A stretch of DNA of 62,083 nt from Rickettsiaceae bacterium (GTDB lineage Bacteria > Pseudomonadota > Alphaproteobacteria > Rickettsiales > UBA6187). A program made the position numbers and the translations under genes. Of the stretch, positions 2,341 through 5,373 are shown in pieces. The stretch spans positions 1 through 62,083 of the forward strand of contig JAJONM010000001.1 in NCBI GenBank assembly GCA_021323415.1, in the 5' to 3' direction. The number at the start of each line of letters is the position of its first letter. The first letter of the stretch is position 1. The notes under the pieces were generated by a model, which was not told the DNA's origin, made no database searches, and was given only the letters and a program-made list of their open reading frames with translations.

Positions 2341-2347
2341 TTTCAAT

Positions 2348-3409
2348 CTAGTTGGATGGACAGGCCTTTTTATTAAATTCTTTGAGAAATTTAATGTATT
2401 TTGCGTCATGTAAACTATTCGGAATAGTATATGCATCTCCTTGTTGAACCCATGAGGTGCCTTTTTTGTTAAGGCAAAATATTCTAAGATACCTTTGATT
2501 ATTGTACCCCACTAATCTTAAGCCGAATGTTAAATCATAAGGCTGGCTATTAAAAGTTTCTTCTAGATAATCCAATACATAAAAACCCTTAGATTCATCT
2601 AAAAAGATTTTATCATTTTCCGACGTAGCTTTTTCTTGTACTTTTGTAATTAAGGTAAATGAATTATCTTCGTTTTGGATGTATGTTTGGAAAGTGGCAT
2701 GTGCGCAACACCCATCTGTTACTACTGCAAGAATTTTTTGATTAGTATTAGGAAGCTTTGCTATATAAATTCTGGGAGGTATATCATCTATCGAATTGCT
2801 AAATATTACTCGCATTCCTGCTGATAATGATGTTTTGCTGCTAATATCATTTATTAATTCTTTTTTCAAAAAATCTTTATTTTCTGTAATAAATTCATTT
2901 AAAAAATTACTATATAATTTGCTAATATATTCTTCTTCTTTTGTCCGTACTGTTCTATGGCTATTATAATTTGTATATTTAGTAGAATCTATTTTGAAAC
3001 CTTTCAATTGGTCAAAAAATAACTTTTGTTTCTTAAAAAGGCTGGTTTTGATTTCAGAGGGCCAATTTTGAGCTCTAGAAGAGAAATCCTGATTTACCTT
3101 AATATATGAAAGTAGCGGTATAGAGTCGCTACCAAATTGTAGAGGGTCCTCCGGGACGGGGTAGAGATCAATTCCATAAGAATCTGTTATTCTGTCAATG
3201 TCTTCAAGTGTCATTAAATAATCTGGGTTTAAAAGTTTTTGTAAATTCTTGAAGAAAAGTAGCTTACCTTTATAGGCTGTTTCCATCTCTTCTTTCGTGT
3301 GATTATAAGGATTTGTGTCAGTGTTACTTTTTTGTGCAGAAGAAAAAGAAGAGCTGAAAGTAATAAACAATAATATGACTAGAAAATAAGTAATTTTTTT
3401 TGTTTGCAT
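2348..3409 (-). CDS. Orphan secreted protein (no recognisable domain)
   Basis: 353-aa ORF with an ATG start and an N-terminal signal-like segment (KKITYFLVILLFITFSSSFSSA). It is Lys/Asn/Phe-rich and lies between xthA and a duplicate xthA 3' fragment. Confidence 0.55.
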   Translation of the reverse strand: MQTKKITYFLVILLFITFSSSFSSAQKSNTDTNPYNHTKEEMETAYKGKLLFFKNLQKLLNPDYLMTLEDIDRITDSYGIDLYPVPEDPLQFGSDSIPLLSYIKVNQDFSSRAQNWPSEIKTSLFKKQKLFFDQLKGFKIDSTKYTNYNSHRTVRTKEEEYISKLYSNFLNEFITENKDFLKKELINDISSKTSLSAGMRVIFSNSIDDIPPRIYIAKLPNTNQKILAVVTDGCCAHATFQTYIQNEDNSFTLITKVQEKATSENDKIFLDESKGFYVLDYLEETFNSQPYDLTFGLRLVGYNNQRYLRIFCLNKKGTSWVQQGDAYTIPNSLHDAKYIKFLKEFNKKACPSN

Positions 3410-3520
3410 TTGTTACCCTGTTATTGGCTTTTTGTGCTAATTTGTAGATACAACAATAGAGTGAAACGCTTTCGAGTCAATACTGCTACCGAAACCTTGC
3501 CCGAAGGCTTACAACCCCCT

Positions 3521-3676
3521 TATAAGGATTGGAAAGTATCTAACCGTGGCCGCCGCCTTGATCATGTGTGGGTTACTCCGGCTTTAAAGCCTAATTTAAA
3601 GGAATATAAAGTTTTGCCCGATGCCCGCGATTGGGTGCAGCCTTCGGACCATGTGCCGGTGGTGGTGGAGATTTAG
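3521..3676 (+). pseudogene. Diverged duplicate of the last ~50 codons of xthA (gene remnant)
   Basis: The translation YKDWKVSNRGRRLDHVWVTPALKPNLKEYKVLPDARDWVQPSDHVPVVVEI aligns codon-for-codon with xthA 2188-2340. I hand-counted about 26 mismatches in 150 nt, many at third positions. The upstream part of ORF 3404-3520 has no xth similarity. Confidence 0.8.
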
Positions 3677-3688
3677 ATAGTGATTATT

Positions 3689-5209
3689 TTATAAGGTAAG
3701 GTCAATGTCTTTATGACGGATTTCGATTTGCTGTTTAATATCTTCCGGTTTTATGGTTTTAGGCTCTGAATCAATTATCTTTTTGAGATAGCTATCTTTT
3801 GTAGAGGATTTATTATTTTCCTTGCTTAATTCCTCAATTCTATTTCTTATCATCTCTGCAATTTCAGGATTGTCGGCCATATCTAAAGCGCTGTCCCCAT
3901 GTAAACTAGCCAACTCTGGCGCTGTTAGATTATTGTTTTTGCAGAATTTTTCTGCTTCTCCTATGTCAAAAGTTTTTTTTAGGATGTCGATGTCTGTAAT
4001 TTTATTTAAAAGAAAAGCAACAACATTTTGTTGCCCGTGCATAGAAGCTGCCATTAAAGGTGTAAAAGTGTTATATATACCACTATTATAATCTGCTTCT
4101 TTATCAAAAAGTACATTTACCATACGTAAATTACCATTCCTGCAGGCATTCCAAAAAGGAGTTATACCACTATGGGTCGCTTTATTAACATCTGCTCCGG
4201 CTTTAATAAGGGCTTCAAAAACGGAAATATTTCCTTTTTCACAAACTGTATTTAGTGGAGTGTACCCATTAGTAAAGGCGGTGTTAATATCAGTCCCTTT
4301 TTCAATATATTCATATATGTATTTTTCAGCGTGCTCACTTTTATTAGATCTATCGCACTCTAGTAGCAAAGCCAGTTCGTTATATCTTTTTAGTGTATCT
4401 TCGCTGATGGGGAAGTCTTTAACCATTTTTGCGATATCCTTATCGCTTCCTACTTCCTGATTGAGTTCATCCCTCATAAATTTTAGAAATTTGGTAAGCT
4501 GCCAGCGTAAATGTTTTTCCAAATCAATGCATAATGGCTCACGTGATGCGCTGACTGTAAAAGATTCATCGTTTTCTGTGTAAGTTGCTGTTTCTGGAGA
4601 ATGAACAATAGCATGCATAAAATCTTTACATTGATCTGCTATGTTTTTGTTATTTATACGCCTTGTTATAGAATGACACATAGTATCGAGGCTCATAGAT
4701 GTTTCGGTATAATATTTTTTTCCTCCATGAATTATGGCACTTATGTTATCAGGCACATCTTCCGCAACAGCTCCAGCTTGACATGCGAATATACCAATCA
4801 TCATTTTCTTATCTTTATTGCCAATATCACTCTCAAATATCTCCTTTAAATCATTTAGTATGATGTATGTTTCGTTTTTTGATTCAGGGTACATAGTTAT
4901 TTTATGAGGGGTATAATCATTTTTACCGACTTTCTTTGCGCCACCATGTCCTGATATATTTATACTGGTGTTGGCATCTATTTTGCCGGTTAGTTGCTGC
5001 TGCAGAAATTCTTTACTTAAAAAGCTTTCTTCACCGCCATCACCAATTATGCAGATGCGTAAGCCAGATTGTTGAGAATCAGTTAACAATCTTTCGACTT
5101 CCAGCACTTGAGTATCAGGACCTATAAGGAAGACCATATCATATTTTGGCCCAACATTTTGCTGAACTTCTTCACCGGAGGTATATGTCCATACTAAACC
5201 TTGAGCCAT
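3689..5209 (-). CDS. Ankyrin-repeat protein with an N-terminal His/Cys (caspase-like?) domain
   Basis: 506 aa with an ATG start and an upstream GAGGG. Ankyrin repeats are visible (NGYTPLNTVCEKGNISVFEALIKAGADVN, SGITPFWNACRNGNLRMV, TPLMAASMHGQQNVVAFLL). The N-terminus has alternating strand-like segments ending in INISGHGG and IGIFACQAG. Confidence 0.75.
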   Translation of the reverse strand: MAQGLVWTYTSGEEVQQNVGPKYDMVFLIGPDTQVLEVERLLTDSQQSGLRICIIGDGGEESFLSKEFLQQQLTGKIDANTSINISGHGGAKKVGKNDYTPHKITMYPESKNETYIILNDLKEIFESDIGNKDKKMMIGIFACQAGAVAEDVPDNISAIIHGGKKYYTETSMSLDTMCHSITRRINNKNIADQCKDFMHAIVHSPETATYTENDESFTVSASREPLCIDLEKHLRWQLTKFLKFMRDELNQEVGSDKDIAKMVKDFPISEDTLKRYNELALLLECDRSNKSEHAEKYIYEYIEKGTDINTAFTNGYTPLNTVCEKGNISVFEALIKAGADVNKATHSGITPFWNACRNGNLRMVNVLFDKEADYNSGIYNTFTPLMAASMHGQQNVVAFLLNKITDIDILKKTFDIGEAEKFCKNNNLTAPELASLHGDSALDMADNPEIAEMIRNRIEELSKENNKSSTKDSYLKKIIDSEPKTIKPEDIKQQIEIRHKDIDLTL

Positions 5210-5373
5210 TCATCCCTCTATATTTTTTGCTGGCACTATTCAGTATGTCGTATATTTGTTAATAAAATGTTAAATGTTGGTTGTTATATACATGTAATTT
5301 CAACTCCCTTTACATCCCACAAACCATCTGCTATACGCATGCCGAATGCGCAAATATGCGTATAGGGGGAGAA

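Follow-up and report, generated by a model that had tools for sequence, protein, structure and literature searches.

A displaced second xthA 3' end in a Rickettsiaceae bacterium as a candidate scar of recombination between sister lineages

The 62,083-nucleotide contig JAJONM010000001.1 of the Rickettsiaceae bacterium assembly GCA_021323415.1 (hereafter the window, which is the entire contig C58 of that assembly) carries, downstream of its exodeoxyribonuclease III gene xthA, a second and displaced copy of the last codons of that gene. This fragment lies between xthA and prs with a gene on the opposite strand to either side of it, and the locus can be read, with a likelihood that we place somewhat above even, as a recombination scar that merged two alternative xthA-downstream arrangements through homology on one side and illegitimate joining on the other. 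The features on which the argument turns are:

1552-2340, plus strand: xthA, exodeoxyribonuclease III, 262 aa, intact, with matches to the profiles TIGR00195 and PF03372
2184-2208, plus strand: tract at the left edge of copy 1 that is polymorphic between the window and the Logan contig L056
2185-2328, plus strand: repeat copy 1, comprising ~48 conserved codons at the end of the working xthA
2348-3409, minus strand: p353, an orphan open reading frame (ORF) of 353 aa with a signal-peptide-like N-terminus and no family match
3410-3523, no strand: unique spacer of 114 bp upstream of p353, ending at the non-homologous junction 3523|3524
3524-3676, plus strand: repeat copy 2, the displaced xthA 3' end, 50 codons (KDWKV...VVVEI) and a stop
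3689-5209, minus strand: p506, an ankyrin-repeat protein (Ank_2, E = 3e-25)
5210-5373, no strand: spacer between the divergent p506 and prs
5374-6306, plus strand: prs, ribose-phosphate pyrophosphokinase, 79-83% identical by tblastn to the post-xthA gene of the relatives G008 and G010

The XthA protein matches the whole TIGR00195 model at 203 bits, above the equivalog cut-off of 182.6, and PF03372 at E = 1e-31; orthologues of its gene are present in all 41 relatives searched, and the moderately similar XthA matches include records of Rickettsia and of a 'Rickettsiales bacterium'. The sequence-only reading had noticed that the last ~50 codons of xthA recur downstream on the same strand, in frame and ending in a stop, and a precise alignment confirms this: 2185-2327/8 pairs with 3524-3666/7 without gaps, the two starts being 1339 nt apart. 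Over 144 nt (2185-2328 against 3524-3667) there are 22 mismatches (84.7% identity), in agreement with an earlier hand count of 26 in 150 nt (~83%), which had taken in the poorly aligned tail. These mismatches fall 4, 3 and 15 on codon positions 1, 2 and 3, and the 48 aligned codons comprise 31 that are identical, 12 with synonymous and five with non-synonymous differences. Copy 2 ends in VVVEI, with its stop at 3674-3676, and the working gene ends in VVVRIS; the C-terminus of XthA in relatives is VV.E[F/L/I]. The EI tail of copy 2 is thus ancestral-looking, and the RIS tail of xthA (2329-2340) looks derived; on our own reading of a MAFFT alignment, the homology probably extends as far as the stops, with a 1-nt indel.

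At the left edge, the homology begins abruptly at AAGGAY, XthA codon 212. The motif YSWWSYRN, invariant just upstream of this point in every XthA, is missing before 3524, and upstream of 3524 there is no similarity to xthA. Counted from that edge, the sixth base already differs between the copies, and the longest exact run that they have in common, 17 nt, lies well inside the repeat. The possibility that the fragment belongs to a longer functional paralogue was checked and rejected: it matches the PF03372 profile over positions 176-225 of 225 only, its upstream sequence is unrelated, and the full Exo_endo_phos domain (~250 aa, with catalytic residues spread throughout) is missing. Because its first 211 codons are missing, copy 2 cannot be functional; it is a displaced tail without likely function. 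Self-BLAST of the whole 2.06-Mb, 140-contig assembly returned exactly two copies of the xthA 3' end (E = 7e-39).

The manner in which the two ends diverged bears directly on their origin. By the Nei-Gojobori method, synonymous divergence (dS) is 0.65 and non-synonymous divergence (dN) 0.071, giving a ratio (omega) of 0.11; omega = 1 is rejected at p = 6e-5, and the value of ~0.5, which a local duplication should yield with one copy dead from then on and the other constrained, at p ~0.01. This upholds what the excess of synonymous third-position changes had earlier been taken to mean, i.e., divergence under selection in different lineages rather than a recent local duplication. The copies are 90% identical to each other in amino acids and 85% in nucleotides, against 71-75% and 67-70% when either is compared with the family genomes G008 and G002, and 83-88% in amino acids (our own count) when compared with the equivalent segment of the nearest database protein, P0004; the derived residues KP, KEY and LPD are common to both. 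Across the 22 differing sites, the outgroups side with copy 1 at 6-12 and with copy 2 at 5-9, and polarization of the amino-acid changes with P0003 and P0004 assigns one or two derived changes to each copy. On these comparisons each end has the other as its closest relative and the branch lengths are symmetric; because the outgroups agree with either copy about equally often, neither lies on a long neutral branch. Given mutual closest relationship, symmetric branches and purifying selection, most of the separation would have accrued with both ends within the working xthA genes of two sister lineages, later joined by recombination, and copy 2 would have been dead only briefly relative to the total divergence time. 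Thus, of the earlier proposal that the second end is foreign, derivation from another lineage can be retained; a distant donor cannot, since the mutual nearness of the ends points to a sister lineage within the same clade.

A parallel line of evidence comes from the region downstream of xthA in relatives, all of them other genera or lineages (the nearest XthA identities in the protein database being 84%, 84% and 78%; the contigs of P0003 and P0004 belong to sample 3300050046):

G008 (XthA 73%) and G010: prs 130-160 bp after xthA, in the order ubiE-ubiB-xthA-prs-rplY-pth, i.e., an empty site
G002: a pilin-like gene after xthA, then prs
G004: a 780-aa multi-pass membrane protein after xthA, RND/MMPL-like on our own reading of its sequence, then prs
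P0003 lineage (XthA 84%): LpxR after xthA
P0004 lineage (XthA 84%): a 260-aa orphan after xthA, then ftsZ
L066 (XthA 78%): a palindromic hairpin and an unknown ORF after xthA, instead of prs

G008 and G010 are two genera of the same family as the window's organism, and their empty xthA-prs junction accords with the insertion that had been supposed from the sequence alone. The displaced fragment is present in none of G002, G004, G008, G010, P0003, P0004 and L066, making the scar unique to the window's organism. Six downstream arrangements are found over the eight lineages examined, with the upstream ubiE-ubiB-xthA synteny mostly kept; because the downstream neighbour of xthA differs between lineages, this flank is a recurrent site of change, a local hot spot of rearrangement and gene gain. 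The contigs of G002 break within xthA, which might have been taken as a sign of the same duplication; this was rejected, as the two contigs just overlap (169 nt at 99% identity). In L066, a long perfect hairpin (GTCGCCCCGCATTCGCGATTAGCGGG...CCCGCTAATCGCGAATGCGGGGCGAC, at L066:8787-8900) directly follows the xthA stop.

The layout of the genes around the copies is also informative. The repeats enclose a unit of 1,339 bp, and its cargo is p353 alone plus the 114-bp spacer. The stop of p353 lies 7 nt from the xthA stop and that of p506 lies 12 nt from the copy-2 stop; because each of the two genes ends so close after an xthA stop, the region is better described as two juxtaposed modules, each an xthA end facing a convergent gene, than as one island. 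The two minus-strand ORFs, of 353 and 506 aa, are as the sequence-only reading described them, except that it had placed the ankyrin gene within the island: p506 falls beyond the repeats and adjoins copy 2 in the way that p353 adjoins copy 1. A tandem duplication of a unit consisting of an xthA end and its downstream gene can be ruled out because p353 and p506 are not homologous (best BLASTP E = 0.13); the sequence after the two xthA stops is likewise not alignable.

The gene p353 has no family match in Pfam, NCBIfam or PHROGs, no homologue among 40 relatives or 5.8e9 protein clusters, and none among 1.84e9 representatives besides a fragment of p353 itself. It did not arise as an ORF by chance: by our own estimate, the probability of 353 open codons in a row at its composition is ~1e-13. 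A comparison of GC content with the rest of the genome, which had been suggested earlier, places it at 30.6%, in the lowest 0.6% of the genome's 990 long ORFs. Its product is a predicted secreted protein and might be effector-like; the single-sequence AlphaFold (AF2) model has a mean confidence (predicted local distance difference test, pLDDT) of 41, too poor for fold searching. The spacer upstream of it occurs just once in the genome; a minus-strand site within it (3480-3453) is promoter-like, by consensus match only. In inverted orientation, 3488-3509 matches the xthA tail over 22 nt (I4/I5, 73-77%), a similarity judged to be due to chance.

In p506, the label of an ankyrin and His/Cys protein that had been given from the sequence stands as regards the ankyrin repeats. 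The other half of it is a hint only: the N-terminal domain (residues 83-160) has SGHGG...FACQAG, and its match to Peptidase_C13 (E = 0.007, 16 bits) falls below the cut-off of 22.8, so that a clan-CD (legumain-like) cysteine peptidase with a His/Cys dyad is possible. Among 5.8e9 protein clusters this domain has only two homologues (44% identity); each is fused to ankyrin repeats, and both are located elsewhere, in another organism. The neighbours of this family gave no support to an ancestral adjacency of xthA and p506, the sole homologue with gene context lying elsewhere. The AF2 single-sequence model of p506 (pLDDT 37) is again too poor for fold searching. Between p506 and prs, a third and older xthA remnant was considered on account of a 26-nt match (2321-2346 to 5278-5303) and dismissed as being at chance level: aligned locally with the xthA tail, 5210-5373 scores 20 at best, whereas shuffled sequences average 18 and reach 27.

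The merger that we favor, with which all the observed facts accord, can be set out as follows, its pathway and polarity being read from the anatomy of the locus. Two sister lineages of a Rickettsia-like clade would each have had their own convergent gene set against the xthA end, p353 in one and p506 in the other. DNA of one lineage would then have entered the other and recombined with it, using homology at one end and being joined illegitimately at 3523|3524, i.e., at xthA codon 212, at the other. The product would be a complete xthA with the copy 1 end, p353 and the 114-bp spacer, the other lineage's xthA from codon 212 onward (the dead copy 2), p506 and prs. No recombinase encoded by an element would be needed: homology-facilitated illegitimate recombination (HFIR) could suffice, as could another event of equivalent effect with homology on one side. 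HFIR has been documented in transformable bacteria and in E. coli conjugation, where it leaves displaced orphan pieces, and has been proposed for the displaced orphan modules of type VI secretion system (T6SS) and Rhs loci (PMC3240628; PMC5361080). Two polarities can be envisaged. In polarity A, an incoming segment of xthA end, p353 and spacer would have been anchored in xthA and joined illegitimately at the resident codon 212, leaving a chimeric working gene and a native copy 2; in polarity B, an incoming segment running from xthA codon 212 through p506 and prs would have found its anchor in prs or its spacer, with the illegitimate join upstream of p353, making copy 2 the foreign one. Both appear equally compatible with the facts, with the extreme composition of p353 weakly favoring A. 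The donor relatedness that a homologous anchor calls for is in place, the xthA ends being sister sequences with 85% nucleotide identity, and the opportunity for exchange exists because the L066 organism, with its 78%-identical XthA, co-occurs with the window's strain in sample 3300045996.

In at least one strain, gene conversion appears to have exchanged a short stretch between the 85%-identical repeats after the merger. The Logan contig L056 differs from the window at six of 4,843 bases, all within 2184-2208, and five of these are changes to the base found in copy 2, which is itself unchanged in L056. Because five of the six clustered differences match the copy-2 base, gene conversion between the copies is suggested, the tract being interpretable as a short non-reciprocal patch templated by the dead copy 2 and ending where the homology ends. 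It changes XthA residue 216 from Thr to Ile. Further strain-level variation is seen in P0002, a JGI (Joint Genome Institute) contig of 1481 bp with a near-identical XthA in which NPDIICLQE reads NPYIICLQE (Asp to Tyr).

Several points weigh against this account. The empty sites belong to different genera and not to close relatives, and neither a donor-type nor a pre-insertion allele was found in any database searched, so that the parental arrangements are themselves inferred; across JGI metagenome contigs and GTDB genomes searched for close relatives or a donor, XthA was at most 61% identical, and the collections searched held no congener with an intact copy-2-type xthA or with just one of the two modules. 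The test for selection has just 48 codons to draw on. The conversion tract is seen in a single Logan contig, and within it, position 2197 is unconverted and 2202 is changed to a base of neither copy, a misfit with simple templating by copy 2. The junction shows no more than 2 nt of microhomology (AT), and in the L056 allele only. Demonstrations of HFIR come mainly from naturally transformable bacteria and from conjugation in E. coli, and we know of no DNA-uptake route for an intracellular Rickettsiales-like organism.

The main rival, which we regard as unlikely, is a decayed site-specific element—of the type of e14 or phage 21 at icd, of the integrative and conjugative element (ICE) ICESt at fda, or of a cis-mobilizable element (CIME)—that would have integrated at xthA codon ~212 carrying a replacement 3' end, with copy 1 as attL, copy 2 as attR and all but p353 deleted since. 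Direct repeats of a duplicated gene 3' end, a sharp 5' boundary, homology running to the stop and a reconstituted gene are indeed the anatomy of e14 at icd (PMC6379469), and the empty site in related genera and the very atypical GC of p353 would fit as well. No integrase, excisionase or phage or ICE gene lies in or beside the unit, however, which p353 nearly fills: neither p353 nor the copy 2 fragment has a PHROG match, no tyrosine recombinase (PF00589) occurs on the contig (serine recombinases and transposases were not searched separately), as the sequence-only reading had supposed of integrases, and no tRNA, transfer-messenger RNA (tmRNA) or Rfam family lies within 12 kb of the locus. Tyrosine recombinases elsewhere in the genome, represented by seven PF00589 matches on the five contigs C18, C49, C86, C127 and C51, could work in trans. 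Against an attachment site also stand the difference between the copies at the sixth base from the left edge, with their longest exact match (17 nt) inside the repeat; no exact core was seen at that edge, where an old event could have eroded one. The replacement end is the sister lineage's own xthA, unlike what a long-travelled element copy would be, the insertions after xthA in G002 and G004 came without an xthA fragment, and the scar is the only one of its kind in the genome, self-BLAST having found no further duplicates of housekeeping-gene 3' ends (repeats on contigs C2 and C127 are of other kinds). Thus, from the earlier interpretation of the locus as an integration footprint with a replacement 3' end, the displaced xthA end, the empty site and the atypical p353 survive, and the analogy with tRNA islands and attachment sites is not borne out, for want of a recombinase, an exact left-edge core and a scar in the other lineages with insertions. 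A more elaborate variant, to which we give very little credence, would make xthA codon ~212 a dedicated docking site, in this Rickettsia-like clade, for integrase-less single-gene cassettes, each with an xthA 3' end and one convergent effector-type gene, inserted by a recombinase in trans and stacked in integron fashion with p353 the newest and p506 the previous arrival; were it true, recombination between the repeats would continue, as the mosaic at 2184-2208 suggests.

A second full-length xthA downstream, either from the sister lineage or an old tandem duplicate, might have lost its first 211 codons to deletion or overwriting when p353 was inserted; this would account equally well for the selection signature and the intact frame of the fragment, with no special junction chemistry required. 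We consider it improbable, as it calls for at least two events at one spot and for long retention of two redundant copies, no tandem orthologous xthA occurs among the 41 genomes or the nearest database matches, and the p353 stop lies just 7 nt from the xthA stop with no trace of an inter-copy spacer. A local duplication of the xthA 3' end (e.g., a long target duplication at p353 insertion) followed by divergence of the dead copy in place needs the fewest events, and would sit well with the copies being mutually closest relatives and with the L056 allele, in which copy 1 is almost the same as copy 2 over its left 25 nt. A dead copy should, however, change evenly over codon positions and have the longer branch; what is observed is 15 of 22 changes at third positions, an omega of 0.11 (p ~0.01 against 0.5) and symmetric branches, and a neutral fragment with a dS of 0.65 should show non-synonymous changes in more than five codons (a qualitative expectation, not a computed one). 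This explanation is accordingly quite improbable. Finally, the metagenome-type assembly in 140 contigs and the co-occurrence of a related organism in one sample might invite the thought of an assembly chimera of two co-occurring strains. The order ubiB-xthA-p353-fragment-p506-prs is repeated at 99.9% identity in three further independent assemblies from three samples (JGI 3300045996, JGI 3300042904 and Logan SRR35179664), the exact runs shared by the copies, of 17 nt or less, are too short to mislead assemblers, and the sequence upstream of copy 2 is not xthA; because the structure recurs in this way and no longer exact run is common to the copies, misassembly is very unlikely, and the chimera can be set aside as scarcely credible.

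Some further observations were made in the course of the repeat searches and in the wider window. An 83%-identical palindromic element of ~160 nt occurs in two copies (L065:3114-3272 and L065:6635-6789, or G000 contig C2 14613-14771 and 18134-18288), with termini CGTCATCCTGGAA...TTCCAGGATGACG and inner segments CCAGGATCCAGG/CCTGGATCCTGG; it resembles miniature inverted-repeat transposable elements (MITE) or Rickettsia palindromic elements (RPE) and contains no tRNA or Rfam match. Its copies flank two minus-strand ORFs of 143 and 745 aa. The contig of a relative has a flagellin-like gene and fliS beside HU. On G000 contig C127, the start of a 198-aa ORF and the 3' part of a 1198-aa ORF share an 83% direct repeat (2546-2695 and 4964-5113); judged from the layout only, this resembles a module displaced from a large polymorphic-toxin-type gene, with a logic analogous to that of the xthA scar, and an integrase fragment is also present on this contig (338-520). 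Within the window, a 471-aa orphan ORF on the minus strand (7777-9192) is wedged between pth and ychF, its stop overlapping the end of pth by 8 nt—an effector-like gene within a conserved housekeeping cluster without a duplicated gene end.

Rickettsia-like organisms are usually thought to have limited access to foreign DNA. If the merger is correctly read, the locus would provide a dated trace, at sequence level, of the exchange of DNA between sister lineages of one such bacterium, ankyrin-rich and uncultured, and a concrete route by which orphan effector-like genes might come to be wedged between housekeeping genes without mobile-element machinery. Gene gain in the clade could also be followed with the xthA downstream flank as a marker locus. 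None of this alters the known mechanisms of recombination.

Parallels to several known systems might be struck. In Anaplasma, which also belongs to the Rickettsiales, the msp2/p44 genes undergo segmental gene conversion from truncated pseudogene copies, and here too, in one strain, a short patch of the expressed gene (2184-2208) seems to derive from a truncated xthA copy. Unlike msp2/p44, however, xthA gives no sign of a programmed system: there is one donor copy, the product is a cytoplasmic repair enzyme, and a single tract is seen in a single contig. In Streptococcus thermophilus, CIMEs derived from ICESt1 and ICESt3 at the 3' end of fda are small integrase-less segments between att-like direct repeats that include the housekeeping-gene end. 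The xthA locus is alike in having such a small segment between repeats of a housekeeping-gene end, whereas CIMEs keep functional, near-identical att sites used by a resident ICE integrase, and neither such att identity nor an integrase is seen here.

A further likeness is with icd of E. coli, where the differences between the two ends are reportedly mostly silent, a finding ascribed to Hill et al. in 1989. There, e14 or phage 21 keeps the gene working by supplying an alternative 3' end, and the original end of ~160 bp is left as a diverged, in-frame pseudo-copy, in the case of e14 a 163-bp pseudo-icd' (PMC6379469). The difference lies in the element itself: e14 is a 15-kb prophage with its own integrase, defined att sites and precise excision, whereas the xthA unit has 1.3 kb, one orphan gene, no recombinase and no exact left-edge core. 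With HFIR and displaced orphan modules—known from Acinetobacter, Pseudomonas stutzeri, S. pneumoniae and E. coli conjugation, and proposed for the T6SS effector-immunity arrays of V. cholerae and the orphan tips of Rhs and contact-dependent inhibition (CDI) loci—the locus has in common a homology anchor on one side, a non-homologous join on the other and an old piece pushed downstream as an orphan (PMC3240628; PMC5361080). It departs from them in that its anchor is a housekeeping DNA-repair gene rather than a toxin locus, its displaced piece is a useless 50-codon tail, and its host is an uncultured Rickettsia-like bacterium in which the pathway is deduced from anatomy alone. The xthA locus may thus be placed as a scar of a known kind, with no evident function of its own, and as a clear example of that kind in an unusual host.

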